The position numbers were made by a program, and so were the translations under genes. DNA of 64,000 nucleotides from NCBI GenBank assembly GCA_965242695.1, contig CBDESU010000002.1:768001-832000 (forward strand). Direction: 5' to 3'. Source of the stretch: Cenarchaeum sp. (GTDB lineage Archaea > Thermoproteota > Nitrososphaeria > Nitrososphaerales > Nitrosopumilaceae). Positions 3,941 through 38,577 of this stretch are shown one piece after another (within the stretch, counting starts at the first letter, position 1; each line of letters begins with the position of its first letter). The notes beneath the pieces are model-generated. The model was not told the DNA's origin and searched no databases. It saw nothing but the letters and a program-made list of their open reading frames with translations.

Positions 3941-3941
3941 C

Positions 3942-9769: not shown

Positions 9770-9927
9770 CCGCGCGCCCGCATGCCTGTGGTAACGGGAG
9801 GGGGGGAGGCGCCCGCGGCAGGTGATCACGGCCCTCCGCCCTCCCATTCCGCCCCGCGGCCGTCACGCGCGGCAGCTCCTGCACAGGCCCTCCGCTCGGC
9901 CCCATGGCATCCGCGGTTCGTCATCGC

Positions 9928-11853: not shown

Positions 11854-11868
11854 GGGATTGGCGCCCCC

Positions 11869-11915
11869 GCGGGCCGGTATAACGATACCGCCGCGCCCCG
11901 GCAATGGTTATACCG
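11869..11915. promoter_or_regulatory. Divergent promoter pair (TPR gene / UDG)
   Basis: gcgggccggtataacgataccg at 11869-11890 and oppositely oriented atggttataccg starting 11904. Confidence 0.65.
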
Positions 11916-11936
11916 CCGCCCCGGCGCCCCCGCCCG

Positions 11937-12620: not shown

Positions 12621-14185
12621 TCCGTACACTGCGGCGCGCCGCGCCCCTGCGCGCGCTTGCCCGGCGCTCCGCGCCGCCCGGCGCCCACCGCGCCGTACTG
12701 GCCGCCACACTCTTGCTCTCGGCGTACGTCCACCTGTGGAACCCCGTCGGGTTCCCCGACATCTTCTTCGACGAAGGCGTGTACATGCGCCGCGCGATGC
12801 ACCTTGCCGAGACGGGAGACCCGCAAGAGTCGCACCTGTACGACCACCCATACTTTGGGCAGATCGTCCTTGCCGGGTTCCTAAAGGCCGCCGGCTTTCC
12901 CGAGTCGGCCGCCGCATCGCCCGATGCGCCGTACCTGGCGCCGCGCATACTCATGGGGCTCCTTGCCGTCCTGGACACGTACCTGGTCCACCGCATAGTC
13001 GGCGCAAGGTTTGGCCGCCGCGCCGCCATACTCGCCGCCGTCCTGTTCGCGGCCATGCCGATGACCTGGATGCTGCGGCGCATCGTGCTTGACGGCCTGG
13101 CACTGCCCCTAGTGCTGTCCTCGATCCTGCTTGCGCTCCACTCGGGAGGCGGCTCTGCGCGCCGCGGCGGCGCGCTCGTGCTGTGCTCGGCCGCCCTGCT
13201 CGGCCTTGCCGCCTTTACGAAACTGACGGCGGTCTCGATGGTCCCCGTCGTCGCGTACATTGTCGTGTCGGCGCGAGGCTGGCGCGCGCTGCCCATGTGG
13301 CTCGCGCTGGCGGCCGCCGTGCCGGCCATGTGGCCTGCCGCCGCGCTGCGCGCCGGCGAGGCCCGCCTGTGGCTCGACGGCGTCCTCTGGCAGGCCGGCC
13401 GGCAGGCCGGCGCGGCCGGCGAGCTGCTCGCGGCCGCAACGGCGGCCAACTTTGCGGCCGACCCCGTGCTCATGGGGCTCGGGCTTGCGGGCGCCGCGTA
13501 CGCGGCGGCGCGCAGGCGCCTGTTCCTTGTCCTCTGGATCGGCCCGTTCGTGCCGCTTGCCGCGGCGACCTACTTTCAGTACTTTCACTACATACTGGTG
13601 CTGCCGGCCATGTGCGCCTCGGCTGCGTTCATGATCGACGACATCGTCTCTCGCCGCATCGCGCGCCCGCGCGCGCAGAGGGCCGCGGTAGCCGTCGCGG
13701 CCGCCGCCCTTGCCGCCGCCGGCATGGCGTGGTCGGGCGCGCTCGTCTCCGAGGACGCCTCGTCGGCGCAGCTCGCCGCCGTCTCGCACCTGGCCTCGGG
13801 CCCGTACAACAACATGACCGTGCTCGCGCCGCCTGCCTATTCCTGGGTGCTGTCCGACGTGCACGGCATGCCGCATGTGGCGCCCGACTACTCGCACGTC
13901 CTGTTCTATCCGGTCGAGACGGACCGGTACGTCCTGGTGTACGACTCGCACCTTTTGCACGACCTGGGCCGCGGCGAGCGCCTGGCCGATGCGTACGCCC
14001 GCTCCGAGCCTGTCTGGGAGGCCGGCTCGCATCTGGACTGCGGCCCCGGCGGCGCCGTTGCCGTGGCCGCCGCGGGGCTCGTCTGGAGCCCGTGCGCCGG
14101 CGCAATGCACCTTGCCGCCCCCGAGGGCGCGCTCGTGCAGGTGCGCATCGGGCACGCGGGGCCGCTTGCCGAGCCGCCCGCCTAG
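12617..14185 (+). CDS. GT-C membrane glycosyltransferase (ArnT/PMT family 39-like)
   Basis: FFDEGVY and YDHPYFG motifs, many TM helices; ATGA overlap with the UDG stop. Confidence 0.85.
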   Translation: MIRTLRRAAPLRALARRSAPPGAHRAVLAATLLLSAYVHLWNPVGFPDIFFDEGVYMRRAMHLAETGDPQESHLYDHPYFGQIVLAGFLKAAGFPESAAASPDAPYLAPRILMGLLAVLDTYLVHRIVGARFGRRAAILAAVLFAAMPMTWMLRRIVLDGLALPLVLSSILLALHSGGGSARRGGALVLCSAALLGLAAFTKLTAVSMVPVVAYIVVSARGWRALPMWLALAAAVPAMWPAAALRAGEARLWLDGVLWQAGRQAGAAGELLAAATAANFAADPVLMGLGLAGAAYAAARRRLFLVLWIGPFVPLAAATYFQYFHYILVLPAMCASAAFMIDDIVSRRIARPRAQRAAVAVAAAALAAAGMAWSGALVSEDASSAQLAAVSHLASGPYNNMTVLAPPAYSWVLSDVHGMPHVAPDYSHVLFYPVETDRYVLVYDSHLLHDLGRGERLADAYARSEPVWEAGSHLDCGPGGAVAVAAAGLVWSPCAGAMHLAAPEGALVQVRIGHAGPLAEPPA

Positions 14186-14964
14186 CCGCCTTTGGCTGCG
14201 GCCGCCCCTTGCTTTGCCGCCTCGGCCGCCGCTTCGTTCTCGAGCTCGTCCCTCATGTCGCCGGCCCACTCCCTCGGGTACTTTCCCCACTCGTCCCTGT
14301 TCCTGCCCAGGTCGGCCGGCGGCCCGGCCGCCAGGCACCTGTCGATCATTTCGACCAGCCTCTCCCTGTCGCCCCGCGTCCGGCACGCATTCTCGAGCGC
14401 CGCCCAGTACTCGTCGAGCCACAGGCCGTCCGTGTCCTCTAGCATCCTGTCGACGAGGTACTGCACTATGCGCATGCGCGCCCCCGAGTCGCCCGCCTTT
14501 TCCGCGCACCCGCCGACGGCCAGTATGCAGCGGCTGGCCTTGTCGCGGAACCTGCCGGCCACGCTGAATATGCGCGGGAGGTACTCGATTATGGCCTCTG
14601 CAGTCTGCCCGTACATGAGCGCGGCCTCTTCGTACTCGCCCGCCCTTTCGCGCGCCTTTGCGTCCCGAGTGATGCCGGCGAGGCTGACGTACGGGGTGCG
14701 GTGCGATATGAAGCCGCCGCCCGATCCCCCGTCGAGCACCTCGAAGACCGCCGCCCGGTAGTCCGCCCCGCGCGTGTCGGACAGTATCTTGCGCACGCGC
14801 GCCTCGAACCGGCCCAGCAGGGCGCCGTTCCCGCGCAGCTCGGCGGCCAAAAACTCCCTGACGTCGGCGACGGGCACCGCACTGACGGCCCTCCTGGCCT
14901 CGGCCACGGTGGGCATGCGTGGCCTTCGCGCCGCGCCCTTTGCCGCGCGGAGGGCGGTAGCCAT
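14182..14964 (-). CDS. All-helical hypothetical protein (paralogue 3 of 3), similar to the region following archaeal SWIM fingers
   Basis: Shared blocks RGADY, EAA.(M/I)YGQ.A.AII, CILA.GGCAEKA among three tandem ORFs. Confidence 0.75.
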   Translation of the reverse strand: MATALRAAKGAARRPRMPTVAEARRAVSAVPVADVREFLAAELRGNGALLGRFEARVRKILSDTRGADYRAAVFEVLDGGSGGGFISHRTPYVSLAGITRDAKARERAGEYEEAALMYGQTAEAIIEYLPRIFSVAGRFRDKASRCILAVGGCAEKAGDSGARMRIVQYLVDRMLEDTDGLWLDEYWAALENACRTRGDRERLVEMIDRCLAAGPPADLGRNRDEWGKYPREWAGDMRDELENEAAAEAAKQGAAAAKGG

Positions 14965-15018
14965 GCGCGCCCCGCCGCGCAGTGCGATAAAAGGGCGCCG
15001 CGCCCGCCTTCCCTCGGG

Positions 15019-15759
15019 CTAGCCGGCGTCGCTTTCGCCCTGCCGGCTCCCCTTGCCCTCGCCGTACTCTTTGAGGCGCCTTCCCCACTCGGCCCGCCTG
15101 TCCCTGCCGAGTACGCCCGGCGGCCCCCCGGACAGGACCTCTTCGATGACGCCGCGCAGCCTCTTTTTGTCGCCCGGCTTTTGTGGAACCTTGCCGAGCG
15201 CCTCCTCGTACTCGATATCGCACGCGCCCTTGTAGTCGCGGGCGTACCCCTCGGCCAGGTGCCTTGCTATGCGCATGCGCACGCCCGCCTCGGCCGCCTT
15301 TTCCGCGCAACCTCCCATTGCCAGTATGCACGCGCCGGCCTGCTCGCGAAGCTCGTCCGGCACGACGAACACGTTTGGAAGCCAGTCGATTATGGCGGAG
15401 GCTATCTGCCCGTATATGCGCGCCGCCTCGGCGTAGTCGCCGACCCCCTCGCGCACCCTTGCGTCTTTTGTGACTTTGGTGAAGGCGATGAACGGCCTGC
15501 TGTCCGATATGCGGCCGCTGTTCAGGCCCCTTCCGATCAGCCTCTCGACCTTTGCATAGTGGTCGGCCCCGCGCGACTTGGCCAGGAACCGGCCCGCGAG
15601 CTCCTCGAACCGCCCCATCATCTCCTCGTCCCTGCGGAGCTCGGACGCCAGGAACCTCTTGACGTCGGCGTCGGGGACTGCCTTGATCACCTTCCCGATC
15701 TCGGCTACGGTGGGGCCCTTCCGCTTCTTGGGAGCGCTCCTTGGCGCCGCTCGGGCCAT
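15019..15759 (-). CDS. All-helical hypothetical protein (paralogue 2 of 3)
   Basis: Paralogy to flanking ORFs; TTTTAT box at ~15782-15787. Confidence 0.75.
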   Translation of the reverse strand: MARAAPRSAPKKRKGPTVAEIGKVIKAVPDADVKRFLASELRRDEEMMGRFEELAGRFLAKSRGADHYAKVERLIGRGLNSGRISDSRPFIAFTKVTKDARVREGVGDYAEAARIYGQIASAIIDWLPNVFVVPDELREQAGACILAMGGCAEKAAEAGVRMRIARHLAEGYARDYKGACDIEYEEALGKVPQKPGDKKRLRGVIEEVLSGGPPGVLGRDRRAEWGRRLKEYGEGKGSRQGESDAG

Positions 15760-16549: not shown

Positions 16550-16948
16550 GGGGGGCGGGCCGCGCAGCCCGATATAAAACGGTGCGTCGCCATTGGCGTG
16601 CCTGAGATCGGCACGTTCCGGCTAGATGGGTCGTTACCCTCGCCAACCCCCTTCTTTCCTGTATGAGTCATGGCAGGGTGCATTGTCGCTTGTGTGGAAA
16701 TATAAGGCGAACTTGATCGGCCTGTCGGCAGAGCTCTGTCGTTTACCCTGGCGAATCTCACGTCTGCGTCAACGTCTTCCTAGGTTCACACTTGGCTTCT
16801 GCGCCGCACCGCTCATTTTACGCCCTCGTATTTCTTAGACTAAAAAACTACTCATGCATTCTAACCCACACACTTCAGGCGATTTGCGCGCAACGGAGGA
16901 GAAGGGGTGCAGATATTGTTCTGCATTGCCGTGCTTGTGACTGGCGTG

Positions 16949-17770
16949 TCAGAGATTCCAGTCATTCACAAGCTCGTCAACGTTCTTTTTGCCCAGAAAA
17001 TAGGACCCGTCCTTTAAGGCGAACCGTACTTGGTACCCTGCTTTATTCTTGGTTATGCTTCCATCTTTAATCCTGTTTTTCATTTCTTTGTTAGAAATAG
17101 TGATATATTTGATAACGTTGTTGCGATTACGAAGGACAAAGATATAGTACACATTTGGGCCGCTTGCTCTTTCGAACGCCTCTGGTCTAATTGTAATGAC
17201 GAAAGTTTTACCATCTTTACCTTCAGTCACAGTCTTAACTTGGATTTCGTACACATTCTTGCCCTTGGTGGCTCTTATGTCGATACCGCTATCGATTGTA
17301 ATGCGATCTGCGTTGTAGCCGCGCAGTAGCAGCTCGCTCATCACCCTGAACTCGCCGGCAGCGCCGATCCTCCTCTGATGATCTTTCCCGCCCGACTTGC
17401 CGATCTCTTCGCTGTCTTGGCCCCCGCCTGGCTTGATCGCTCCCATTGTCTGCCCGTCGCGATCATCCGGCGTCTTGTCGGTAGATGGTACGGTGTGCTC
17501 TCCTGCTCCCGTCCCACCGCCTTGGTCGTCGTTGCCCGACAGGGGCGCGTCCACGCCGCTCAGCTTGAACAATCCGGGTCCATCCTTGGCGAACCTTGAG
17601 CGCCCGCGTGCTATGTCGGTGTACAGCATGGCTCCCATGGTCGTCGCTGGAGTATCGCCCTTGGTCGTGATCCTACATGTCTCCGACGCCCTCTCGAGTA
17701 TCTCGGCAGCAGTGAGGGACTTGCCGGCCTCCTGTAGAACTGCATAAGCGGCATCACGATACTTCGACAC
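16949..17770 (-). CDS. HARE-HTH domain + PD-(D/E)XK endonuclease
   Basis: N-term AAYAVLQEAGKSLTAAEIL...GDTPATTMGAMLYTDI...FKL (HARE-HTH); C-term GAAGEFRVMSELLLRG...GIDI...EIQVKT; GTG start 17770 fits the TATA at ~17795. Confidence 0.8.
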   Translation of the reverse strand: MSKYRDAAYAVLQEAGKSLTAAEILERASETCRITTKGDTPATTMGAMLYTDIARGRSRFAKDGPGLFKLSGVDAPLSGNDDQGGGTGAGEHTVPSTDKTPDDRDGQTMGAIKPGGGQDSEEIGKSGGKDHQRRIGAAGEFRVMSELLLRGYNADRITIDSGIDIRATKGKNVYEIQVKTVTEGKDGKTFVITIRPEAFERASGPNVYYIFVLRNRNNVIKYITISNKEMKNRIKDGSITKNKAGYQVRFALKDGSYFLGKKNVDELVNDWNL

Positions 17771-17888
17771 GACGAGCGGGCGCCCGCGGTCTGCTATATG
17801 CATTGCCTCGTCCTCGACCCCGCGCGCCGCCGACCTTCCCTCCCAGTGTGGGAGGGGCACGTGCAGGGGTGCACGGATGGTCCTCGAC

Positions 17889-17995
17889 CCCGCTCCCCCC
17901 TCGACCCCGCCGCGACCGATCGCCCTGCTCACCAGCGTCAGCGTCATGTCGTTCGCCTCCCGCTCCCCCCTCGACCCCGCCGCGACCGATCGCCC
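17889..17995 (+). repeat. Two exact 37-bp direct repeats, 70-bp period
   Basis: cccgctcccccctcgaccccgccgcgaccgatcgccc at 17889-17925 and 17959-17995. Confidence 0.85.
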
Positions 17996-18035
17996 GCCCG
18001 CAACGCTTAATAGCGCGCCGCCTAGGCCGCGCCGC

Positions 18036-19214
18036 ATGGCATACGGCGGCAGCGGCGCCCCCCGCGGCCCCGCCCAGGTCTCCATACTAGTGCCGACCTA
18101 CAACGAGTCGCAGAACATCGTCGGGCTGCTCCGGTCGGTCGCCGAGCACCTCCCAAAGAACCTCCGCGTCGAGACGATCGTCATAGACGACAACTCGCCC
18201 GACGGGACGGGCCGCATCGTAGAGGACTACATCCGCAACGTCCAGCGGGCCGCCAACCACGCCATCGGCATAGTCCACCGCAGGGCCCGCGAGGGCCTCG
18301 GCTCGGCCATACTAAAGGGCCTGCAGCACTCGACGGGCAGCTCTATCGTCGTCCTAGACAGCGACTTTTCCCACCCGCCGAGCCTCATACCAAAGCTCAT
18401 CGAGGCCATCCGGCGCCCCCACTGCGACATAGCCGTCGCCTCGAGGTACGTAGAGGGCGGGGCCGTAAAGGGCTGGCCGCTGCGCCGCAAGTTGCTAAGC
18501 CGCGTGGCCACCCGCATAGCAAAGACCGGCCTGGGCGTAGAGCAGGACGACCCGATGTCCGGATTCTTTGCCTTCAAGAAGAGCGTCGTGGCCGGCCTAA
18601 AGCTCGACGGCCTCGGCTACAAGATGCTCCTCGAGATACTCGTAAAGGCGCGCGGCGCGAGCGTCCTCGAGATACCCTACACGTTCACGGACAGGCGCGC
18701 CGGCAGCAGCAAGCTCGGCGCCGGGACGGTCCTGGACTACGGCCGCTCCGTGTGGAGGCTGTACCGGTACGGCAAGAGGGAGAAGAGGGCCCCCGAGGAG
18801 CACCGCTCCGTCCGGTTCGTCTCGAAGGCGGCGCGGTTCTACACGGTCGGCGCGCTCGGGCTGCTCGTAAACTACGCCCTCTCGCTGCTGTTCGCCGGCG
18901 CGCTCGAGCAGGTGTGGTACCTGCACGCCAACCTAGTCGGCATTGCGGCCTCGATGACGTCGAACTTTGCGCTCAACAAGTACTGGACGTTCGAGGACCG
19001 CGACTTTTCGCTGCGCCACACCGCATCGCAGTACGGCAAGTTCGTCCTGTTCAGCTCGGCAGGCGCGCTCGTCCAGCTCGGCATGGTGTACGGCTTGGTC
19101 GAGGCGTACTCGGTGCCGTACCCGGCCGCGCTCGTCCTCGCCGTCATGACGGCCGCGTTTGGCAACTTTGTGCTAAACAAAAGGTGGACGTTCCGCGAGA
19201 GGCTGTGGTCCTGA
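18036..19214 (+). CDS. Polyprenol-phosphate mannosyltransferase (GT2, DPM1-like) fused to GtrA flippase-like domain
   Basis: VPTYNE, IDDNSPDGT, LDSDFSHPP, DPMSGFF; C-terminal 4-TM GtrA (NFALNKYWTF, NFVLNKRWTF). Confidence 0.9.
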   Translation: MAYGGSGAPRGPAQVSILVPTYNESQNIVGLLRSVAEHLPKNLRVETIVIDDNSPDGTGRIVEDYIRNVQRAANHAIGIVHRRAREGLGSAILKGLQHSTGSSIVVLDSDFSHPPSLIPKLIEAIRRPHCDIAVASRYVEGGAVKGWPLRRKLLSRVATRIAKTGLGVEQDDPMSGFFAFKKSVVAGLKLDGLGYKMLLEILVKARGASVLEIPYTFTDRRAGSSKLGAGTVLDYGRSVWRLYRYGKREKRAPEEHRSVRFVSKAARFYTVGALGLLVNYALSLLFAGALEQVWYLHANLVGIAASMTSNFALNKYWTFEDRDFSLRHTASQYGKFVLFSSAGALVQLGMVYGLVEAYSVPYPAALVLAVMTAAFGNFVLNKRWTFRERLWS

Positions 19215-19265
19215 CCGCGGCGGCGCAGGGGAGGGGCCGGGGCCGCGGCTCCCCCACCGCCCGCC

Positions 19266-19280
19266 AAGAAAAACAAAAGA
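19266..19280 (-). terminator. Probable oligo-T terminator of cdvB-like gene
   Basis: T-rich run on the minus strand ~20 nt after the stop in GC-rich context. Confidence 0.4.
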
Positions 19281-19300
19281 GGGCCGCGGCGGCGCCGCGG

Positions 19301-19969
19301 CTATTCGTACGTGGTGCCCGTCGACGACGCCGCCGCGTCCGATGCCAGGCCAGTCGGGGTCGGCACGGAGGGGAACCGCGCTCCGATCTGCTGCTCGGCG
19401 ACCGCGCTGGCCTCCTGCAGGATCTTGTCGGTCTCCTCGCTCGACATGTCCGACTCCATGCTGAACGAGTCGCCGGCTAGCGACTCCATCATCAGGCCGT
19501 TGAGCGTCTGCGTCATCGAGCTCATCTCGGCGTCGGCCTCCGGCATGAACTTGCCGAGGGACGACTTGAGGCCCTTCATCGTCGTCATGGCCGGCCCGAT
19601 GGCTACCATGGCGTCGCCCAGGTCGTGTATGGTCGTGAGCCTGAGCTGGACCTGCTCGAGTGACATCCTCGCGTTGCTGAGCATCTTCGTGACCTTGCGT
19701 ATCTCGGCGAGCTCGTTGGAGAGCACCTTGCTGGCGCTCGTGTCGTGCTGCTGGAGGGCCGTCACGACCCGCTGGAAGAGGCGCTGGTCCCTCTCTCGCA
19801 GCTTTGCCAGCATGGCGTCCATCTTGCTAGTCTGTATCTGCAGCTTGTTCACCGCAGTCTGGATGCGCGGCTTGAGCGCTCCCTGGGGCCTGACGGCCTC
19901 TTGGAGCTTTGTCGTCATGCCTGGCCCCTCTTGTCGGGACCAGTTCTTGTCAAAGCTAGTCATGCCCAC
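19301..19969 (-). CDS. cdvB: ESCRT-III/Snf7 cell-division protein (CdvB paralogue)
   Basis: Coiled coil with ASKVLSNELAEIRK...SLEQVQLRLTTIHDLGD...KILQEASAVAE, typical of thaumarchaeal CdvB proteins. Confidence 0.85.
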   Translation of the reverse strand: MGMTSFDKNWSRQEGPGMTTKLQEAVRPQGALKPRIQTAVNKLQIQTSKMDAMLAKLRERDQRLFQRVVTALQQHDTSASKVLSNELAEIRKVTKMLSNARMSLEQVQLRLTTIHDLGDAMVAIGPAMTTMKGLKSSLGKFMPEADAEMSSMTQTLNGLMMESLAGDSFSMESDMSSEETDKILQEASAVAEQQIGARFPSVPTPTGLASDAAASSTGTTYE

Positions 19970-20015
19970 GCCTGCCTCCGGCGCGCCTTAATCCGGGGGG
20001 TGCAATTTGCTAGAC

Positions 20016-20885
20016 ATGGACGTAAATTTAGCTGACCTGGCGGGCCGCGCGATGGGCGGCGGCGGGGGCGCCGGCAGCGCCAGCGGGGGCGCCGGGGGCG
20101 GCTCCGGGGGCGTGGCCGTGTTCGACTCGGGCCTCGGCTCGCTGTCGGTCATACGGCGCATCAGGCGGGCCGTCCCGGCGGCGCCCGTCGTGTACCTGGC
20201 GGACACGGCCAACTACCCGTACGGTACGAGGTCGCCGCCCGCGCTGCGCCGCATCGTAGAGGGGCGGATACGCCTGCTCAGGGACAGGTTCAGGCCGGAC
20301 GTCATAGTAGTCGGCTCGATCACGCCGACCCTGCTGCTCCCCGACCTGTTCGCCGGCGGTGCCGTGGTCGGCGTGGCCCCGCCCCTGCGCCGCGCCGCAC
20401 GGGCCACTCGCACGGGCCATGTCGGCGTACTGGCCACGCGGTCCGTGGTGGGGCGCTGCCGTACCGGGGAGATTGCGGCGGGGCTGGAGGTGCCGGCCGG
20501 GGTGCGCCTGCACCCGATAGACGCATCGCCGCTCGTCGACCTGGTAGAGTCGGGGGCGTTCCTTGACGACGGGGAAGAGTGCGCCAAGAGGCTGGCCAGG
20601 CTCGGCCCCGTCCTGTCCGAGAACAGGATAGACTCGCTCGCGCTGTCGAGCACGCACCTGCCGTTCCTTGTCGAGCGGCTTGCCGAGGCGTTTCCGAGGG
20701 TGCGGCTTGCCGACCCCGGCGAGGATGCGGCCGAGGCCGTGCGCAGGCGCATCGGCGCAGGTGCGGGAGGGGCGAGCCAAAAAGAGGCGCCGATGCGGGT
20801 GTTCGCGTCCGGCGATCCCGTTCCGCTAGAGGGCAGGCTGCGCCGCCTCGGCGTGCGCGAAGCAGTGCAGCGGCTTGACGGCTAG
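20016..20885 (+). CDS. Glutamate racemase-like (Asp/Glu racemase family) protein
   Basis: VFDSGLGSLSV, YLADTANYPYG, GVLAT, LSSTHLPF; catalytic Cys positions are Ser; start uncertain. Confidence 0.8.
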   Translation: MDVNLADLAGRAMGGGGGAGSASGGAGGGSGGVAVFDSGLGSLSVIRRIRRAVPAAPVVYLADTANYPYGTRSPPALRRIVEGRIRLLRDRFRPDVIVVGSITPTLLLPDLFAGGAVVGVAPPLRRAARATRTGHVGVLATRSVVGRCRTGEIAAGLEVPAGVRLHPIDASPLVDLVESGAFLDDGEECAKRLARLGPVLSENRIDSLALSSTHLPFLVERLAEAFPRVRLADPGEDAAEAVRRRIGAGAGGASQKEAPMRVFASGDPVPLEGRLRRLGVREAVQRLDG

Positions 20886-24037: not shown

Positions 24038-24160
24038 CAAAAATTGGAGCGTCACTGTTAGCAACATGTTAAACACCCAACACAGCCATACCGACACCAC
24101 TATAGTTACAACCCACAATGTCTGTGTCGTGGCCGAACTTTTCGATCGGGAGTGGTTGCC

Positions 24161-25987
24161 ATGCTTCTGAAGTGGACATTTCCGCCCACGGGTGGGGGTG
24201 TTGCACACGGTTTTAACGATAGTGCACAAGAGCACTTTAGAAATGACGCATGGAAGCATACCATACGAGAGCTAATTCAGAACTCTCTTGATGCTGTTCG
24301 CAACAAGGGCCAGCCAGTTGTTGTTGAGATATCGCTAATTGACGTGCCGTCAATCGAACTAGGTGCACTCGACCTTGCTAAACATGTAAAAGAAGCATTA
24401 AAACGAGCTAAAAAACAGGGCGAGAAACACGGCGAAAAATTCTATACTGATGCATTAAAGATTTTGAAAAGAAAGAAAATTAAAACACTAGCAGTAAAAG
24501 ATGCAAACACCACGGGTCTTATTGATGGAAAATGGAGTGCCCTAGTATTCAGCGAAGGGGCCACTGATAAAGGTGGCATGAGTGCAGCCGGCGGGAGTTT
24601 TGGAATAGGTAAAAGCGCCCCCTATTTAGTGTCTGAACTTAAAACTGTATGTTACTCTACGTACTACGCCCGGCCTGGAAGAGAGGAACGATTTATTGCG
24701 CGCTGCAAGCTAATCGCACACAATGATCCACAGGGACGAGACGGTGAGCTTCAACACATTGGATTCGGTACGAAAGGAAGAGTCCAGCGTAACAAACGCC
24801 CGCACCCCACACGAGGTCAAAACATCTACAGTGACTTTCGACTTGGTGGTATTGGCAGTGGCATATTTATCGCTGGATTTAATCCATTATCAAAAGATTG
24901 GCTAAAGGTTGCCGAAAAATCCATTGCAGAGAGCTTTTTTGAGGCAATACATACAGAAAAGTTAAGCATAAAGTTAGATGGTCAATTAATAACACGCGAT
25001 ACGCTTGATGAAATTTTTGATCAAGATCCAGATAACGATTCGTCGTACTACTACCATGTAATCCGAGGCGATCCCAATGTAAAAACTGAATATATCAAGA
25101 CGGACTTAGGGGAGTTTACTCTAAAGTTCTATATCGGGCAAGATGGAATGCCAAACCGAATTGCTTATGTCAACAGGAGGGGCATGCTAGTTACAGACAC
25201 AAGACAGCGTAATAAAAATCCCTTTCACAAAGCAGTAGGTCGAGGCTGGGCCAAGTACGTGGCAGTTGTCACGGCTTCAAATGATGAAACAGATACAAAA
25301 ATACGTGAAATGGAGCCTCCCAACCACGGTACAATTGAACCCGGCCGCATCATTGATCCTGTTAGGCGTGACGAAATGGAAGCAGCACTGGCCAGTATAA
25401 GGGAGAAAATTGCTACGGTAATAGGTGATGCACTGCGGCTTAGCATCCAAGACCAAGAGATTAACGTATCTGAACTCGCAGGGATCATACCAATTGATGG
25501 GGACAACAGTGATGGTAAGGACGAAGAAAGTCAAAACGACGAAGTCGAGCTTAAGGTTCGAAAGCTCAAAGCACCAACACCTGGAGAGAGCTATACTGAG
25601 CAGAAAGGTCCAAGTAAAGGTCGGGGATCAACCGGTAAAAAGCGTGGCAAAAAACGTGAACAGAAAGAAGAACGTACCGGGGCACTTAATAAAATACGTA
25701 TAATGCGCATCGATGACAAGATGCGAGTGGCATTTACACCCACAGCATCTATGGAAGATATTCGCTTTTTGATTAGGCCCGCAGGTGAAGAGCGAATGCG
25801 AGAGCATGCTATTACGATTAGTAAGGCTAGAGCATTACACAGCAACACTTCTGTTCGTGCAGACGGCAAAACCGTGATCGTCTCTCCTCAAAATACAGAT
25901 AGGATAACAATGGATCTTACAGTGGGTAAGGCTAAAGCATACACAGGATATGAAATAGCCTGTGTTTCTCAGGAGGAGCAAAAATGA
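24161..25987 (+). CDS. GHKL (HATPase-like) ATPase, island gene 1
   Basis: IRELIQNSLDA (N-box), KDANTTGL (G1-like), GGSFGIGKSA (G2); later EPPNH motif. Confidence 0.8.
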   Translation: MLLKWTFPPTGGGVAHGFNDSAQEHFRNDAWKHTIRELIQNSLDAVRNKGQPVVVEISLIDVPSIELGALDLAKHVKEALKRAKKQGEKHGEKFYTDALKILKRKKIKTLAVKDANTTGLIDGKWSALVFSEGATDKGGMSAAGGSFGIGKSAPYLVSELKTVCYSTYYARPGREERFIARCKLIAHNDPQGRDGELQHIGFGTKGRVQRNKRPHPTRGQNIYSDFRLGGIGSGIFIAGFNPLSKDWLKVAEKSIAESFFEAIHTEKLSIKLDGQLITRDTLDEIFDQDPDNDSSYYYHVIRGDPNVKTEYIKTDLGEFTLKFYIGQDGMPNRIAYVNRRGMLVTDTRQRNKNPFHKAVGRGWAKYVAVVTASNDETDTKIREMEPPNHGTIEPGRIIDPVRRDEMEAALASIREKIATVIGDALRLSIQDQEINVSELAGIIPIDGDNSDGKDEESQNDEVELKVRKLKAPTPGESYTEQKGPSKGRGSTGKKRGKKREQKEERTGALNKIRIMRIDDKMRVAFTPTASMEDIRFLIRPAGEERMREHAITISKARALHSNTSVRADGKTVIVSPQNTDRITMDLTVGKAKAYTGYEIACVSQEEQK

Positions 25988-26823
25988 CCCGCGATAAGCT
26001 CCTCCTGCCTCATCCGGTGCTACGACCGGGCGGCGGACTGGATTACAACGAAAGCTGCAATTTTGGGCTGGAAATAAAGCCTGGAGCCTCTAGACGTACA
26101 TCGGAAGGGGTCGTAGAAATTAAAGCATCATTCACGCTTGTTAGCCCTACTTTAGAAGAGATGGTAAAGGAGGGCAAGGCTCAGTACCTTGTATTGGCGA
26201 CATGCGCAAAAACATACTATCGACTTGCAACATCTTTTGATGTCCAACAAATATTGCTAGAATTTCCTGTTAAAAATTTGGCTGGTACTCTTCGATTAAC
26301 ACCTTATATTGTAACAACTAAAGAAATAGAGTGGTTTATTGCACCAGAACACGATCCTGAAATAAAAATATTTCAAGGATTTGGCAAGATCCCGCCAGGA
26401 TCAATACTTGCCATAGGTGCCCCGCACGAAATTGAAATGGAACAAATTGGGACTGTTATGTCTGCAATAAAACTGGTTCCAAACGCAAACATTATGGAAG
26501 GGCGTTACACAATAAACGATGAAGGTGATTTTATAATGATTGAACTAAATAATAAAACATACACAGATATTGCACGCATGAGGACCCACATAAAAAATCT
26601 ACTCTACCCTTCTATCTATCAGGCAGCTATTGAGTATGCCCTACGTAAAGCTACTGAAGAAGCAGATAGTAAGTGGGCCAAAGCTTTACAAAAAACGCTA
26701 GAAGAACATGGTCTTAGTAACGATAATATTGAAGAAAAAGCGAATGAATACGCCCAAATAATAATGGGGGACCCGTTAGGGCAAATGCTCGAATGGTGCA
26801 ACAGGAGTGTTTCATTTGACTGA
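25984..26823 (+). CDS. Hypothetical protein, island gene 2
   Basis: 279-aa ORF, N-terminal PHPVL motif, ATGA overlap with gene 1. Confidence 0.8.
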   Translation: MTRDKLLLPHPVLRPGGGLDYNESCNFGLEIKPGASRRTSEGVVEIKASFTLVSPTLEEMVKEGKAQYLVLATCAKTYYRLATSFDVQQILLEFPVKNLAGTLRLTPYIVTTKEIEWFIAPEHDPEIKIFQGFGKIPPGSILAIGAPHEIEMEQIGTVMSAIKLVPNANIMEGRYTINDEGDFIMIELNNKTYTDIARMRTHIKNLLYPSIYQAAIEYALRKATEEADSKWAKALQKTLEEHGLSNDNIEEKANEYAQIIMGDPLGQMLEWCNRSVSFD

Positions 26824-28513
26824 CACCATACGGCTACATAGGCTCACCGGTGATGCATTTGTGAGTTTGCGTAACTATGCGAGCAACCACCCTGATGCTT
26901 ATTGTGACCCTAATGCCGACTTTGGGAAGATTCTTGAATCATGTTGTGATAAAAGCTATTCAAACCCTGTAAACATTACCCTAGATTCTGCCCTGTCCCT
27001 AAAGGAACCACTAGAATATAGTAAAAGCAATGCCAAACGTCATCTTGCAGACAAACAAGCTTTAGATTTCTATAAATCTTTGAAGGGCATGACGCCCAGA
27101 CTGGCCTCTGATCCTTATATTTTAGCCTACATAAACCACTTTTATCTTCATAAATATGGTATCCAGAGATGGCCTATAAGTAAAGAAAAACAGGCGCCAG
27201 CCACTGAGCAAGCGGCACCTACATCGACTAGTGCGCCATTAGGACTGAGCAAGAGAGCATCTCACATTCGGCTACACTGGTTGACCTCTAGTAACCAGCG
27301 TCAACAGATATGGAATGCCAGTATTGCTGGCCGTACATGGTGGATTGCACATGTAGCGATTAAAGCGGCTGATGCTTCAGGAGGGGCCTTTACAGCTAAA
27401 GATGCGTTGGATCTTTTTGCGGAGACGCCCGAGTATTACCACAGAACAATGGAGTATGTAGTTCTCAGGAATCCAGTTCTCCTAGCAGAGTGTGTCCGCG
27501 CACTAATGAATGAAGCTCGTGGGATTAATCGCAGTGGATATAGAGAAATGGGAATGGAACTAAACCGTGAAGCCGGCGCGCGAGTGCTTGATTCACTTAA
27601 CCGAAACGACCTACGAAGGCTTGTTCATCGATCTGCCGATCGTCTTATGCGCATGAAAGACTACGTAAACGATCGCCATCACCTCGTTGGTGTCGACAAG
27701 TTCAATGTACTTAGCCTCGGGGCAGGCGCACAATCGACGGTGCTTGCACTCATGGCAGAGGAGGGGTGGGAAGGCTTAGAAAAACCCGATCTCGCGATAT
27801 TCGCTGATACGCAATGGGAACCACGTGCGGTGTATGATCACCTAAAATGGCTTAAGAGCCAATTGTCCTATGAGGTAGTTACGGTTACGGCCGGTGACAT
27901 AAAAGACAACATGCTTCACGGCGTCAACCCTGATGGTGACAAGTTCCTTGACGTACCGGTATTCTTACGCAATGCGGACGGAACTAAGTCCGTGGCAGCT
28001 AGGCAATGCACCACTCACTACAAAATAATACCCATACACAAAGAAATCCGAAAAAGACTTAAAATCCCTGCTGGCAAGCGTGTTCCTAAAGACGTCCAAG
28101 TCGTGATGTGGTTAGGAATAAGCGCAGACGAGTCAACTAGAATGAAGCCTAGCAGGGATGAATGGATAGACAACCGATACCCGCTAGTTGAGATGAGCAT
28201 GACTCGAGCCGATATATACAAGTGGTTTGGAGATCGCTACCCTGATCGACATCTACCCCGCAGTGCTTGCGTGGGTTGCCCGTACCACGACGATATGGAG
28301 TGGAAATGGATCAAGGACAACGAACCCGAGTCATTCAAGGATGCTGTGAACATTGATTGGTCTTTGCGCAATGTGCCTGCCGCACGTGGTTCACTACGCG
28401 GGGAGGCATACCTACACAAGTCGAGAATGCCGCTAAGTGACATTGACTTTTCGCAAACTCGTGACTATGATGACTACATGGCAACTGAATGTGAGGGGTT
28501 GTGCGGTGTCTAA
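26807..28513 (+). CDS. DUF6339-like N-terminus fused to PAPS-reductase-like (PP-loop, Cys-rich) domain, island gene 3
   Basis: N-half HFYLHKYGIQRWP...IAGRTWWIAH; C-half VLSLGAGAQST, IFADTQWE, RQCTTHYKIIP, WLGISADE, YPLVE, SACVGCPYH, terminal ECEGLCGV. Confidence 0.75.
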   Translation: MFHLTDTIRLHRLTGDAFVSLRNYASNHPDAYCDPNADFGKILESCCDKSYSNPVNITLDSALSLKEPLEYSKSNAKRHLADKQALDFYKSLKGMTPRLASDPYILAYINHFYLHKYGIQRWPISKEKQAPATEQAAPTSTSAPLGLSKRASHIRLHWLTSSNQRQQIWNASIAGRTWWIAHVAIKAADASGGAFTAKDALDLFAETPEYYHRTMEYVVLRNPVLLAECVRALMNEARGINRSGYREMGMELNREAGARVLDSLNRNDLRRLVHRSADRLMRMKDYVNDRHHLVGVDKFNVLSLGAGAQSTVLALMAEEGWEGLEKPDLAIFADTQWEPRAVYDHLKWLKSQLSYEVVTVTAGDIKDNMLHGVNPDGDKFLDVPVFLRNADGTKSVAARQCTTHYKIIPIHKEIRKRLKIPAGKRVPKDVQVVMWLGISADESTRMKPSRDEWIDNRYPLVEMSMTRADIYKWFGDRYPDRHLPRSACVGCPYHDDMEWKWIKDNEPESFKDAVNIDWSLRNVPAARGSLRGEAYLHKSRMPLSDIDFSQTRDYDDYMATECEGLCGV

Positions 28514-28847
28514 TCTGACAAATTTTCTCACGAGAGATTTTATGTCGTTTGGCCATGGTTGCCACGAGGTGATTGATCCTGGGCCGGGATTGTATGCAAT
28601 GTGGTTGCGCGGCCAGTGCATATACGTGGGAATGAGCGAGGATCTTCACAGACGCATTTTTCAGCATGTGGCCTCCGAGGACAACCAGGATCTTGCCAAT
28701 TATTACCGACAATTTCCTGGCGAGATTCGAATAGCTATCGTGCACGTGGATGCCAAAGCAGATCAACTCCGTCGACTTGAGTCTGAGGCCATTGAAAAAC
28801 TCCGACCTATCGTTAACAAGCGTGGTGGAGGTGGCACACGGCAATGA
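28506..28847 (+). CDS. Stand-alone GIY-YIG nuclease, island gene 4
   Basis: PGLYAMW...IYVGMSEDLHRRIFQH...LESEAI...PIVN; GTG 28506 overlaps the gene 3 stop. Confidence 0.8.
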   Translation: MSNLTNFLTRDFMSFGHGCHEVIDPGPGLYAMWLRGQCIYVGMSEDLHRRIFQHVASEDNQDLANYYRQFPGEIRIAIVHVDAKADQLRRLESEAIEKLRPIVNKRGGGGTRQ

Positions 28848-30154
28848 CCAGCTGTCATCCTGCACTTCGAGGAAAATTCGGGAAAACAGAATATTTTTTG
28901 ACCGTTATGCCGGTAGGCGATCTGGTAAACCGCGTGAAATTTCCTGTTGAGATGCCGGAATGGAAAGAGTATACTATCGAAGAACGCTACCAGCGTAGCC
29001 TTAATATGAAACGCATTATAGAAGAAATGGCCCCGTACTTTGCTCAAGACGATAACCGGTTCACGGGTTCGTTAGTCTTGGCCGTCCAAAATGATGAAAA
29101 CATGGAGTTTGAGCACCTGTCTAAGCTAACGGGAGACTTGGGCGCACTTCCTACCATGTACAAGAGTGCTTCGTCCGAAATGGGGTTTGTTGTCATGTCT
29201 GGGCAAGAAGTACTAGTTCCACTAGATGGGCAGCACCGTGCCAAGGCGTTCAAGATGGCTATTGAAGGCCACGCCCGAAACGATCGTGAACCTCCCGTGA
29301 TACTACCCAACGTAAGTTTTGCTCGCGATATGGTGGCGGTAATACTTGTGCGTTTTGACAAAAAGCTATCACGATACATATTTAACAAGATTAATCGCTA
29401 TGCTAAACCAACCGTCAAGGGGGACAAACTAATCACCGATGACGATGACGCAGTTGCAGTCATGACTCGGGCTCTGATAAGAGACGGTGTGATCCCTGCT
29501 AGGCTAGTCAAGGTTAGCGGTAATACACTCAACCTACGTGCGATCGAATTTACAACACTATCTACTTTCTACGAAGCGAATAAAAAACTCGTCTCAGCAT
29601 TGCCGATTCCTCTTGCGGACAAGCCAGAAAAAATGAATTTAGGTGAACGAGAAAAACGCCTTAAGGAGCTTCAAATTGAGTGGAGGCGTCTATTGTCTGG
29701 TGTCACAGAATGGAAAAGAGCACTTACCGCCTCTGATCAAGGTGGAGACGCGACGCGGATCAAGTTGCGTGAAATTTCCTTGCTTGCCAGGCCCGTTGGG
29801 CAGGCAGCCTTAATTAATGGCTATACATTGGCATGTATGAAAGACAGAACTCGTGCAGACAAAGATGAGCTGGTGGCAAGGATCAATAAGATAGATTGGG
29901 GTGTCAAAGCAGAGCTGTGGAAGGGTTTGCTGGTAGGTCCAAATAACAAAATATTCTCTAGCATGCCTGCAGCTAGGAACGCAGGCTTGATGACTGCACA
30001 CATGATCGGTATCGCATTGACCCGTAAGGAAAAGGAACGCGTCATAAAATTTGTCTACGGTAATGCTTCTATGAACCGCAATTTGCCCAAGCCTATAGCA
30101 CTTTCCCGCTACGAACTAGACGAACATAAGCAACAAGCAAGGGATGGTCTATAA
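28844..30154 (+). CDS. DGQHR-domain (DndB-like, ParB superfamily) protein, island gene 5
   Basis: YQRSLN..RI, VPLDGQHRAKA, IFNKINRYAKP; ATGA overlap. Confidence 0.88.
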   Translation: MTSCHPALRGKFGKTEYFLTVMPVGDLVNRVKFPVEMPEWKEYTIEERYQRSLNMKRIIEEMAPYFAQDDNRFTGSLVLAVQNDENMEFEHLSKLTGDLGALPTMYKSASSEMGFVVMSGQEVLVPLDGQHRAKAFKMAIEGHARNDREPPVILPNVSFARDMVAVILVRFDKKLSRYIFNKINRYAKPTVKGDKLITDDDDAVAVMTRALIRDGVIPARLVKVSGNTLNLRAIEFTTLSTFYEANKKLVSALPIPLADKPEKMNLGEREKRLKELQIEWRRLLSGVTEWKRALTASDQGGDATRIKLREISLLARPVGQAALINGYTLACMKDRTRADKDELVARINKIDWGVKAELWKGLLVGPNNKIFSSMPAARNAGLMTAHMIGIALTRKEKERVIKFVYGNASMNRNLPKPIALSRYELDEHKQQARDGL

Positions 30155-30352
30155 GCGCTGATGCCAGACCCTTGCATTGCCGTTGATAGACCCGCGTCAA
30201 TGCCCGACATTTCGTGGGCGGTGATGTTGATCTAAGCAAGGCACGACTGCGACGTTGTGGCCGCATTATGACTAACCTTTTGTAAACCTGAACCCGAGCT
30301 GTCCCACCCTACGCCCCACAACAGTTATTATCGCACGCGCTCCGTGCCGTGC

Positions 30353-36657: not shown

Positions 36658-38577
36658 ATGCTAGTCGACATCACCCCCGACAAGTCGCTCGTCAAAAAGC
36701 TGGGCCTCTCGGGGTACAGGACCGAGCAGGCCTTGGCCGAGCTGGTCGACAACTCCATTGACGCGCGAATCGATGGCGTCAAAGGTACTATTACGGTACG
36801 GCTGGACTTTGATGATCGCAGCCTCGTCGTCTCGGACGACGGCCACGGGATGAACGGCAAGGAGCTCGCCGGCGCCATGGTCATAGCCAAGAGCGACAAG
36901 GATGGCGGCAAGCTCGGCAGGTTCGGCATTGGCCTGAAGGGGGCCTGCACGGCCCTGGGAGATCGCTTTGAGATAGTCACGTCGCCCGTGGGATCGAAAA
37001 AGTGGTACCGCGCCCGGTACAGCGAGTCCGAGTGGATCAGGGACGAGTCAAAGGGGTGGAAGAACTTTGAGATCAAGACGACGGGGCCCGACCGCGGGCA
37101 GGAGGACTGGCACGGCACGCGCGTGACGGTGGACCTGCTGAATGTCCCGCTCTACCCCAACCAGGTCTCGCGGTTCAGGGAGCGGTTCGGCGTGAGGTAC
37201 TCGCCGTACCTTGAAAGCGGGCAGATCGCGATTCGGGTCAACACGGTAGAGTGCAGGCCGTCCGCCCCCGAGCTCGACGATGCGCACGGCTGGTCCAAAG
37301 TAGACATGGATCTGGAGTTTGGCAACCGAGTCCGCGGCCGGCTCGGACTGCTTCGAAAGAGATCGGTAGGCGGCCAGTACGGCATCCACCTCTTCAAGAA
37401 CGGCAGGTTGATACGGGCGTTTGAAAAGTTCGGCTTTTCGGCGCACCCGGAAAACTCGAGGCTGATAGGCGAGCTGCACCTAGACCACGTCCCGGTCAAC
37501 TTCAACAAGAGCAGGTTCATAGAGGAGAGTCGCGAATACCGCAAAACCTTGGACAGGTTCACAAAGTCCCCCGACCTGCGCCGGCTCCTGTCGTCGTCCC
37601 AGTCCAGGGCCCGGGTCCCCGCGCCGGTGGGCTCGCTCATGGACTACTTTAAGGGAAGCGGCCCCGCGCAGCGGCTGGATCGGCGCGTGCGCCAGTCCGA
37701 GGCGGCAAGGCTGCTAGGCGAGGCGGCCGGAAAGTCGTTCACGATAAGCGCCGACGGCGGCGTTCCCGTCCGGATGCGAGCCGGGCCGGCCGAGGGCAAG
37801 CCGCTGTACACGATTGGCACGGGGAACGGCGCAGTATCCATCGACGTCAATACGGGCAGCCCCCTCTTCGGGCTCGTTGGCAACCCCCTGCTACTGCTGG
37901 GCCTGGCCGCCTCCGAAGCCGAGATGGTGTCTAGGAACCCGAAGAGCGCCGCCGCCCTAGTGGAGCGCAACGCAAGGCTGGAGGGCTTTGTGCGCGAGTG
38001 GACGCCCAAGGCGCCACTGGGCCCGCTGCGCGACAGGGAGGCGCCCGTCCCTCGCACCTACGGCTACGGGCTGTACAGCGACATAATAGAGGTCCACGAC
38101 TATCTAAAGGAGAATCTCCCGATGAAGTTCCAGTTTACCGCCCTGTCGACGCTGCGGCCGTACCTGCACAACGTGCTAGGCAGGGCAGTGTACACCGTGC
38201 ACACGATGCCGGGAAGCGGCGAAGATGCGGCGGGGCTCATCATGGACAGGTTCAGCGACGAGATCGTGGCGGCGGACAGGCCCAGCCGCGAGGTGCTCAG
38301 CGCCATGTTCAACAAGGAGCGGACCCGCACCGTGGTGGCGGTTCGGGAGTACATGAACATCCCGGGCCCGTCCGTGGCCCCGCCCGCCAAGGCCTTTGTC
38401 GATCTGATCATCGAAAAAGACGTCCACAAGTCCCTCATACGCGACGACGAGCCGAGGATGGTGCTGTACAGCTTGTTGCGGCACGAGCTGGTCGACCTGG
38501 ATGAGGTGCGCAGGCAGGCCCGCCGCGTAAAGCAGACGAGGCGGCTTGAGCCTATGATCGAGGCTGGTCCCGCATGA
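36658..38577 (+). CDS. MORC-type GHKL ATPase with C-terminal AbiEi-antitoxin-like domain (copy 1)
   Basis: ALAELVDNSIDA, DDGHGM, LGRFGIGLKGA, HGTRV; C-term ...VAPPAKAFVDL resembles the AbiEi C-terminal EKxLVD. Confidence 0.8.
   Translation: MLVDITPDKSLVKKLGLSGYRTEQALAELVDNSIDARIDGVKGTITVRLDFDDRSLVVSDDGHGMNGKELAGAMVIAKSDKDGGKLGRFGIGLKGACTALGDRFEIVTSPVGSKKWYRARYSESEWIRDESKGWKNFEIKTTGPDRGQEDWHGTRVTVDLLNVPLYPNQVSRFRERFGVRYSPYLESGQIAIRVNTVECRPSAPELDDAHGWSKVDMDLEFGNRVRGRLGLLRKRSVGGQYGIHLFKNGRLIRAFEKFGFSAHPENSRLIGELHLDHVPVNFNKSRFIEESREYRKTLDRFTKSPDLRRLLSSSQSRARVPAPVGSLMDYFKGSGPAQRLDRRVRQSEAARLLGEAAGKSFTISADGGVPVRMRAGPAEGKPLYTIGTGNGAVSIDVNTGSPLFGLVGNPLLLLGLAASEAEMVSRNPKSAAALVERNARLEGFVREWTPKAPLGPLRDREAPVPRTYGYGLYSDIIEVHDYLKENLPMKFQFTALSTLRPYLHNVLGRAVYTVHTMPGSGEDAAGLIMDRFSDEIVAADRPSREVLSAMFNKERTRTVVAVREYMNIPGPSVAPPAKAFVDLIIEKDVHKSLIRDDEPRMVLYSLLRHELVDLDEVRRQARRVKQTRRLEPMIEAGPA

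Follow-up and report, generated by a model that had tools for sequence, protein, structure and literature searches.

A DUF6339–PP-loop fusion in place of a C5 methyltransferase in a candidate GHKL-type defence operon of a Cenarchaeum genome

The window analysed here is a stretch of 64,000 nucleotides from a Cenarchaeum genome (contig CBDESU010000002.1, positions 768,001 to 832,000 of the forward strand), and the feature under study is an open reading frame (ORF) at 26807-28513 (+), which joins a DUF6339 domain to a PP-loop enzyme domain resembling phage-type 3′-phosphoadenosine 5′-phosphosulfate (PAPS) reductases. The fusion ORF begins with a GTG codon, encodes 568 amino acids (aa) and is located in an island of low guanine and cytosine (GC) content at 24100-30250. 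Composition profiles revealed a GC content of about 45% within this island and about 70% in the flanks and the host genome, with sharp edges, and a Pfam scan identified cobalamin-type methylase genes (Pfam TP_methylase) and an NFACT gene as its flanks. No tRNA was found within 28 kb of the island, and no convincing direct repeats flank its ends. The island holds a system of five genes on the + strand, whose stops and starts overlap or abut. The best explanation for the system of the fusion ORF is a horizontally acquired, restriction-modification-like defence system.

Gene A (24152-25987 (+), 611 aa), whose stop overlaps the start of gene B, corresponds to the PADLOC model PDC-M33A (E 3.8e-84) and is a putative, divergent GHKL-type ATPase. 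It lacks any Pfam or NCBIfam match; the N-box E..NS.DA and the boxes D.G.G and G..G.G are visible and conserved, and an hhalign comparison of its family with the HATPase_c_3-bearing family c4 scored 74.6% (E 2.7e-5) over 94 columns spanning these GHKL-like boxes. Among PDB sequences, gene A gave weak matches alone, to Topo VI-B and MutL (E 0.2-0.4). Gene B (25984-26823 (+), 279 aa), the predicted partner of DUF6339, corresponds to PDC-M33B (E 3.7e-29). It has neither a Pfam nor an NCBIfam match and no known domain, and Atlas returned hypothetical clusters alone. The fusion is followed by a small GIY-YIG nuclease ORF at 28437-28847 (+), for which the maximal ORF has 136 aa and the sequence points to an ATG at 28543 as the likely start, yielding a protein of about 101 aa. 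The Pfam GIY-YIG domain was matched at residues 53-127 of the 136-aa ORF (E 6.2e-6, 26.9 bits, cut-off 22.6), and its family, BLAST cluster c7, comprises 12 proteins spread over 12 loci. The stop of this ORF overlaps the start of gene D (28844-30154 (+), 436 aa), which encodes a DndB-family, DGQHR-domain (ParB-like) protein: it matches Pfam DndB (PF14072; E 1.5e-32, 113.5 bits, cut-off 29.1) and TIGR03187 DGQHR (95.1 bits, cut-off 58.85), the DGQHR motif is visible in the translation, and it stays below the DndB equivalog TIGR03233 (70.9 bits against 328).

The N-terminal half of the fusion (residues 1-290, 26807-27676 (+)) is mostly helical with a disordered insert at residues 128-145. The first-pass annotation of this DNA, made by a model from the letters alone, had assigned this half to DUF6339 by its motifs, and the assignment was borne out by Pfam DUF6339 (PF19866) at residues 86-273 (E 3.1e-17, 63.3 bits, cut-off 23.2) and by the PADLOC model PDC-M33C at residues 10-281 (E 1.2e-16). 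The A, B and C proteins of PDC-M33 are encoded consecutively on one strand. The C-terminal half (residues 291-568, 27677-28513 (+)) proved to be phage-type and PAPS-reductase-like, as had been proposed: it matches phrog_424 'PAPS reductase' (residues 227-568, E 4.4e-43), which PHROGs files under auxiliary metabolic genes, and the PADLOC model SspD (PDLC02782; residues 301-518, E 4.6e-15). With 13.5 bits (E 0.075), this half falls below the cut-off of 22.5 for Pfam PAPS_reduct (PF01507). The fusion matched no NCBIfam model at E≤1, and a search of solved-structure sequences with the fusion profile likewise gave no match at E≤1.

In an alignment of 25 full-length homologues with 50-83% identity, each of the motifs pointed out in the first-pass annotation (the variant PP-loop, CT..YK, CVGC and ECEGLC in the C-half, Y...RWP and R.WW in the N-half) is present and invariant in 25 of 25 rows. 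The C-half motifs comprise S303-L-G-A-G-x-Q309-S310, R399-Q-C401-T with Y405-K406, C488-x-G-C491 and E561-C562-E-G-x-C566, read in the window as the loop SLGAGAQS and the tail EC562EGLC566, and the invariant residues of the N-half are Y117, R121-W122(-P123), R176 and W179. The histidines H111, H115, H157 and H212 are conserved as well. A second alignment took in the window, three standalone and three phage homologues. Here S.LG.G.QS, FADT..EP, RQCT..YK, G.S.DE, C401, C488, C491 and C566 are invariant in all seven rows, and C562 is present in six of them. The loop departs from the canonical PP-loop SGG.DS; sulfonucleotide reductases have degenerate loops and do not hydrolyse ATP. A cysteine followed by CxxC and a cysteine in a flexible tail presumably resembles the layout of iron-sulfur (Fe-S) sulfonucleotide reductases and Fe-S thiolases, and the terminal EC..C recalls what we take to be the ECG.H tail of sulfonucleotide reductases.

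AlphaFold2 yielded a confident two-domain model (predicted local distance difference test, pLDDT, 87.7), with a helical N-domain and an alpha/beta C-domain that meet at about residue 290, and with seven disordered residues at the C-terminus. The C-half adopts the PP-loop (adenine-nucleotide alpha-hydrolase) fold: 31 chains were matched at Z≥8, and the top rows are all PP-loop enzymes. The best match is the PAPS reductase 7rge (Z 11.8, root-mean-square deviation (rmsd) 4.1, 167 aligned residues), and CysD, CysH, the Fe-S tRNA thiolase NcsA, adenosine 5′-phosphosulfate (APS) reductases and the Fe-S enzyme LarE follow, the best of them within about 1.5 Z; the APS/PAPS-reductase matches include 6vpu (Z 10.6) and 2goy (Z 10.4). 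No DNA-binding domain was recognised in the C-half. When modelled alone, the DUF6339 half reached a pLDDT of 90.1. Structure searches gave no convincing relative for it (best VIA-align match Z 6.4, rmsd 2.0, over 55 residues of a helical sub-bundle; best Foldseek E 0.74), which is no proof of a new fold.

The first-pass annotation had called the fusion unusual and had considered an assembly artefact. A search of 5.8 billion proteins resulted in 609 matches at E≤0.001 among 8000 candidates scored, and all of the 120 homologues listed cover 92-100% of the query with 48-83% identity and a length of 503-567 aa; the source names on four of the listed rows include Cenarchaeum, Thaumarchaeota, Pirellulales and Chloroflexi. 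Moreover, contigs of four of four public sequencing runs from two studies bridge the junction near 27690 without insertions or deletions. Two of these runs (X1, X2) show full identity along the entire stretch and may represent the source sample. The fusion is therefore not an artefact. The DUF6339 profile detected 1139 proteins at E≤0.001 among 1.84 billion cluster representatives, and PF19866 is present in one of 400 other genomes in a sample of one phylum. Since only 14 of the best 150 DUF6339 representatives have at least 480 aa and most have 235-270 aa, the standalone form dominates the family. The fusion is thus real and, measured against the whole DUF6339 family, unusual as a minority form; taken by itself, it makes up a large and conserved subfamily with a wide distribution across metagenome-assembled genomes of archaea and bacteria. 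Other architectures were encountered as well: in P0146 (534 aa) the DUF6339 domain occupies residues 151-408, and P0185 (696 aa) contains two matched stretches.

With one genome scanned per species, 567 genomic loci encode a relative. We annotated the best 80 of these, the window and the regions of three relatives (84 loci). After L010 and L011 were left out as duplicates of L012 and L016, 40 unique loci contain the full fusion in one frame and 42 the PP-loop half alone. In all 40 fusion loci A and B lie directly upstream on the same strand; in L009 one of the two analyses shows this order, since the greedy gene set displaced B in the other. The trio of a GHKL protein, an uncharacterised protein and DUF6339, which the first-pass annotation had named, is accordingly real and corresponds to PDC-M33 A, B and C in constant order. 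Downstream of the fusion, a DndB-like gene is present within three genes in 11 of the 40 loci, preceded by a small ORF in 8 of these 11. A GmrSD/SspE-like enzyme follows directly in nine loci. PbeA/PbeC-like genes are present in five and a module consisting of a helicase, a GHKL protein and a PLD nuclease in four, and 13 loci have none of these.

For comparison, we assembled 73 loci (2 genomic, 71 metagenomic) with 74 standalone DUF6339 genes. With another alignment, 141 stretches of the metagenomes matched the pattern, none of which was confirmed. B lies directly upstream of 62 of the 74 genes and both A and B of 52; in most of the remainder a contig end interrupts the operon. The link to a C5-cytosine methyltransferase suggested in the first-pass annotation was corroborated: among 20 operons flanked on either side by at least 1.1 kb of sequence, a C5 methylase is located directly upstream of A in 12, directly downstream of DUF6339 in two and elsewhere in the locus in five (19/20), and one operon (L157) has none. 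When at least 1.1 kb of upstream sequence was the only condition (32 operons), the methylase is directly upstream in 22 and somewhere in the locus in 30. All 38 methylase candidates of the standalone-DUF6339 loci belong to PF00145, and a family of Vsr endonucleases, which usually accompany active C5 methylation, turns up repeatedly in these loci (a cluster of seven). Conversely, the C5 methylase profile gave no match in any of the 84 fusion or PP-loop loci, the window region included, nor did the profiles of the PP-loop domain and of the DndB-like protein match anywhere in the 73 standalone-DUF6339 loci. The two modifiers are thus mutually exclusive: in the loci examined, the modifier slot of the operon holds either a C5 methylase or a PP-loop domain and never both. 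The 'swapped modification chemistry' put forward in the first-pass annotation is thus supported at the level of comparative genomics.

In addition, a family of AspBHI-like modification-dependent endonucleases (RE_AspBHI_N and Mrr_cat; a cluster of eight, of which one member was scanned) recurs near methylase-A-B-DUF6339 operons, namely in L116, L118, L126, L127, L130, L152, L158 and L165. Near three fusion operons we observed second, divergent A-B pairs, in L025 at 1866-6863 (-), in L039 at 16720-20444 (+) and in L047 at 11713-15487 (-). Their third genes encode proteins of 306-334 aa, in L025 followed by an Mrr-type endonuclease. These proteins gave no Pfam match, and the one that was compared with DUF6339 by hhalign scored 0.6%; the pairs may represent one more form of the system, in which the third subunit has escaped recognition.

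Two lines of evidence connect B with DUF6339. First, P0147 is a natural B-DUF6339 fusion, in which residues 9-273 align to B of the window (31% identity, E 3e-38) and DUF6339 occupies residues 286-534. Second, a complex model of B and the DUF6339 half reached a median ipSAE (a score of predicted interface quality) of 0.82 (runs 0.81, 0.82 and 0.82), and the best of three controls 0.00. In the calibration, 58 of 80 solved complexes and two of 110 mismatched pairs reached the mark, counts that hold roughly here, since the model was built on our own alignments. Contacts agree to at least 87% and the pLDDT of the partners is at least 84. The predicted interface on DUF6339 involves residues 96-102, 162-183, 215-222 and 257-268 and holds the invariant residues T96, A100, W179 and G257 as well as the conserved D102 and D262; on B it includes residues 137-141. 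The model therefore supports binding of B to DUF6339, and on the basis of the P0147 fusion, the complex model and the invariant residues in the interface we read DUF6339 as a subunit that probably docks onto B.

The standalone PP-loop genes encode proteins of 275-345 aa with 44-49% identity to the C-half of the window. In 12 of the 42 loci the next gene is DndB-like, in many cases with a GIY-YIG ORF between the two, and in 25 the PP-loop gene is followed by a PbeA-like superfamily 2 (SF2) helicase, a HATPase_c_3 GHKL protein and a PLD-type nuclease. Four loci show none of these contexts. The remaining one is L089, where at 9111-10834 (+) a split or frameshifted form was found: A and B are followed by DUF6339 (297 aa) and PP-loop ORFs that overlap in different frames; this form sits on a very long tree branch. 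In a maximum-likelihood tree of the PP-loop domain (85 rows, rooted on three phage homologues with long branches), the 40 fused copies lie on one side of a branch, requiring one change (Shimodaira-Hasegawa-like approximate likelihood-ratio test, SH-aLRT, 75), and the DndB-linked and the helicase-linked clades are each supported by 99. The window groups with six Nitrososphaerota rows (support 99). The tree places rows of Actinomycetota and Pseudomonadota within those of Chloroflexota, which points to lateral transfer. The fused, DndB-linked and helicase-linked forms are separate on this tree, and we read this pattern as suggestive of co-evolution with the respective partners. The GIY-YIG ORF, the DndB-like gene and the moves of the PP-loop enzyme among several partner modules had not figured in the first-pass annotation.

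The enzyme also occurs in phages, for example Thermus phage P23-77 and Geobacillus phage PK5.1, and on plasmids. Fifty phage records match the C-half, 44 of them over at least 80% of the query, and homologues from Pelagibacter, Geobacillus, Salisaeta and Thermus phages share 36-43% identity over 97-99% of its length. In the three phage regions read, the gene is solitary and located in early or replication regions near genes for HNH proteins, single-stranded DNA-binding protein, helicases or DNA methylases. Plasmid records account for 213 matches, of which 110 come from Agrobacterium; the Agrobacterium homologues are annotated as 'hypothetical protein' in all rows listed. On pTiC58 (L173, 5027-6867) the homologue starts at the stop of ardC, an anti-restriction gene of the ArdC family, and a ParB-domain gene lies in the same region. 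In virome papers, phage PAPS reductase counts as a genuine auxiliary metabolic gene of sulfur metabolism (PMC13369170).

Dnd, Ssp and BREX type 4 are, to our knowledge, the three classes of systems that mark DNA with a PAPS-reductase-like enzyme, and in each of them the partner of this enzyme is a P-loop, ABC or AAA+ ATPase. The locus in the window resembles these systems in outline, as an apparent PP-loop-based DNA modification coupled to restriction, but it fails membership in any of them because their partner genes are absent. The likeness to Dnd consists in a PP-loop enzyme with conserved cysteines beside a DndB-family DGQHR protein, a pair that also occurs alone in the 12 standalone loci mentioned above; in contrast to Dnd, the island lacks DndA, DndD and DndE, and D scores far under the DndB equivalog cut-off. 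Neither an NCBIfam family (at E≤1) nor a DndC model of PADLOC matched the fusion, both libraries presumably containing a model of DndC. With SspD and BrxP the fusion shares a PAPS-reductase-like PP-loop enzyme, its best named profile being SspD, in the place of a methyltransferase, and the SspE-like GmrSD genes that follow the fusion in nine loci recall SspE. The differences are a DUF6339 partner instead of DUF4007 or SspB, a GHKL ATPase instead of the ORC/Cdc6-like SspC or BrxC, and the loop SLGAG.QS; moreover, SspA, SspB, SspC, PglZ, BrxL and a DUF4007 fusion are missing from the island. According to excerpts of the literature on BREX type 4, a PAPS-reductase-like enzyme replaces the methyltransferase there, BrxP is a fusion of SspD with its partner SspB, and BrxP, BrxC and a desulfurase suffice for phosphorothioation (PMC12914056, PMC12839542). 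A further excerpt describes a DndDE core that pairs with DndC or, instead, with cytosine methylases (PMC10853773).

The PDC-M33 operon, as seen here with a C5 methylase, A, B and DUF6339, has the same three models, the same gene order and the same overlapping stops and starts as the window. In comparison with this canonical form, the window is devoid of the C5 methyltransferase, carries the PP-loop domain fused to DUF6339, and contains the GIY-YIG and DndB-like genes downstream. Our full-text literature search retrieved no paper naming DUF6339 or PDC-M33; supplementary neighbourhood tables (e.g. those of PMC10853773 and PMC12914056) lay outside this search and might hold the architecture. In 2008, Iyer, Abhiman and Aravind (PMC2292703) described restriction-modification operons in which GHKL ATPases of the MORC/paraMORC type are encoded together with cytosine methylases, Vsr, SF2 helicases and HKD/PLD nucleases. 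This description suits the canonical M33 operon as well as the helicase-GHKL-PLD module found next to the standalone PP-loop gene, whereas the paper makes no mention of PAPS reductases.

Taken together, these comparisons slightly favour, in our judgement, a self-marking DNA modifier that is coupled to a GHKL restriction complex. The PP-loop domain would act as a functional replacement of the methyltransferase and would therefore put a 'self' mark on host DNA. Docking of DUF6339 onto B would tether the marking enzyme to the GHKL ATPase complex, which, by analogy to MORC and paraMORC, may manipulate DNA and direct the attack on unmarked DNA, with the GIY-YIG protein as a putative accessory nuclease and the DndB-like protein as a putative regulator. 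DNA as the target of the PP-loop enzyme is suggested by the contexts in which it occurs, i.e. beside DndB-like proteins, the helicase-GHKL-PLD module, GmrSD/SspE-like enzymes, phage replication genes and ardC. The chemistry would most likely consist of an ATP-dependent adenylation followed by sulfur transfer, resulting in a phosphorothioate-like or thio mark. An Fe-S cluster may be bound by C401, C488 and C491, and the sulfur may be carried on the flexible EC..C tail at the C-terminus, donated in trans by a cysteine desulfurase of the host; at least seven Aminotran_5 genes are present elsewhere in the genome, and their products could serve as donors. Phosphorothioation as the specific chemistry is proposed tentatively and with distinctly less confidence than the marking function itself. 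We infer the role of the trio as a restriction 'chassis', the action of the PP-loop domain on DNA and the chemistry alike.

Such an arrangement would be the fourth of its kind, built on a GHKL ATPase and with an enzyme that takes the place of a C5 methyltransferase and forms one polypeptide with a subunit of the complex. The locus offers an experimental handle on the role of DUF6339 and PDC-M33 and on the common phage 'PAPS reductase' genes, which are now read as auxiliary genes of sulfur metabolism, yet whose relatives reported here sit in DNA-modification contexts. The case is a comparative one, which does not settle the chemistry.

Several observations weigh against a self-marking modifier in a restriction complex. 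The substrate is assigned wholly from gene context. The island contains no cysteine desulfurase, no P-loop ATPase of the DndD/SspC/BrxC type, no DndE and no SspB, and neither a cysteine desulfurase nor other sulfur genes appeared among the recurrent neighbour clusters scanned, the rarer neighbours having been scanned in part. Owing to the degenerate loop SLGAGAQS, ATP pyrophosphatase activity is not assured. Domain and structure searches revealed no nuclease domain in A, B or DUF6339, so that a restriction role of the trio is an assumption; PDC-M33 is itself a candidate system, and the 13 fusion loci with none of the four downstream modules have no recognised accessory nuclease module nearby. 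Furthermore, the single origin of the fusion is backed by the SH-aLRT value of 75% alone, and the methylase counts rest on the 73 standalone-DUF6339 loci, many of them truncated, which were retrieved with one peptide pattern. Lastly, an excerpt of PMC12914056 reports that no phosphorothioate was present in a strain with a PAPS-reductase gene and an ATPase but without dndD.

A bolder version, which we regard as somewhat doubtful, would see in the phrog_424 family a self-sufficient, single-polypeptide DNA modifier, whose mark is made by no known route. This mark would serve as the 'self' label for at least three restriction chassis, which could be GHKL-B-DUF6339, DndB/GIY-YIG and helicase-GHKL-PLD, and the phage and plasmid orphans would be protective modifiers. 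The mark could be a phosphorothioate made without an ATPase of the DndD/SspC/BrxC type or, alternatively, a thiolated or otherwise adenylation-derived base. If this were true, many calls of phage PAPS reductases as 'sulfur auxiliary metabolic genes' would be mis-assignments.

The best surviving rival, which we nevertheless deem unlikely, likewise has the enzyme mark DNA, but considers A, B and DUF6339 as the targeting and scanning apparatus of the modification, as DndD-DndE, SspB-SspC or BrxC are elsewhere. The variable neighbours would then be in charge of restriction, i.e. the GmrSD/SspE-like, GIY-YIG and Pbe-like genes and the PLD nuclease with its helicase. The presence of these partners after the fusion (9/40 for the SspE-like GmrSD, 5/40 for Pbe-like genes and 4/40 for helicase-GHKL-PLD) and the absence of a recognised nuclease domain from A, B and DUF6339 are in line with this idea. 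So are excerpts of PMC12914056 and PMC12707154, according to which all characterised phosphorothioation systems need an ATPase and a DNA-recognition protein and BrxP is an enzyme fused to its DNA-binding partner. In contrast, a recurrent nuclease partner is absent from the same 13 fusion loci and from most methylase-A-B-DUF6339 operons. C5 methyltransferases do not normally depend on an ATPase that scans DNA for them, and the PP-loop enzyme is solitary in phages and plasmids and thus seems able to act without A and B.

Even less probable is a PP-loop domain that does not mark DNA and acts instead on a nucleotide, a small molecule or a protein, be it as an effector or in signal processing of the type seen in cyclic-oligonucleotide-based antiphage signalling (CBASS), or as an anti-defence factor of mobile elements. 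The fold matches Cap9 (9nto, Z 9.4, rmsd 3.6, 153 aligned) and YcfA (9kq6, Z 8.8, rmsd 4.2, 164 aligned), which stand among many PP-loop enzymes within about 2 Z of the top match, and the degenerate loop, the solitary phage copies and a C-half in which no DNA-binding domain was recognised are compatible with another substrate. However, the operon is otherwise unchanged and the enzyme sits precisely where the DNA methyltransferase would be, it is paired with DndB-like proteins in the manner of DndC, and its nearest profile match is SspD.

It is highly improbable that the C-half is an ordinary metabolic PAPS/APS reductase of sulfur assimilation or auxiliary metabolism, or a tRNA thiolase, fused to its neighbour by chance: the best structures include PAPS and APS reductases (7rge, 6vpu and 2goy), the cysteine layout and the EC..C tail recall these enzymes, and PHROGs lists the family, as virome papers list phage PAPS reductase, among the auxiliary metabolic genes, but this half stays under the PAPS_reduct threshold, neither the island nor the recurrent neighbours comprise sulfate-assimilation genes, and defence or DNA functions mark the fusion partner and every recurrent neighbour. 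With CysH the C-half shares the fold (Z 10-11.8) and the C...CxxC arrangement with a cysteine in the flexible C-terminal tail; it differs in its defence context and in that a canonical copy exists elsewhere in the genome. This PAPS reductase gene (G000:C2:766143-766667; PF01507, 165 bits) is located about 1.3 kb before the start of the window and about 28 kb from the fusion. Its nearness is probably a coincidence, and its presence argues against a housekeeping role of the fusion, which it renders unlikely.

Beyond the island, two further genes of the window give the stretch the look of a defence neighbourhood. At 36658-38577 (+), about 6.5 kb downstream of the island, we observed a gene for a MORC-like GHKL ATPase with HATPase_c_3 (E 6e-18) and Morc6_S5 domains, and at 39874-43044 (-), in a region of lower GC content (58-63%), a gene for a candidate type IIG restriction-modification protein of 1056 aa, with matches to the Eco57I methylase (E 1.2e-31), MmeI_Mtase and N6_Mtase. 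In addition, a protein of 378 aa with a HARE-HTH domain (E 3.2e-12) is encoded at 16949-18085 (-), where the GC content dips to 59% at 16-18 kb and short low-GC ORFs accompany the gene.

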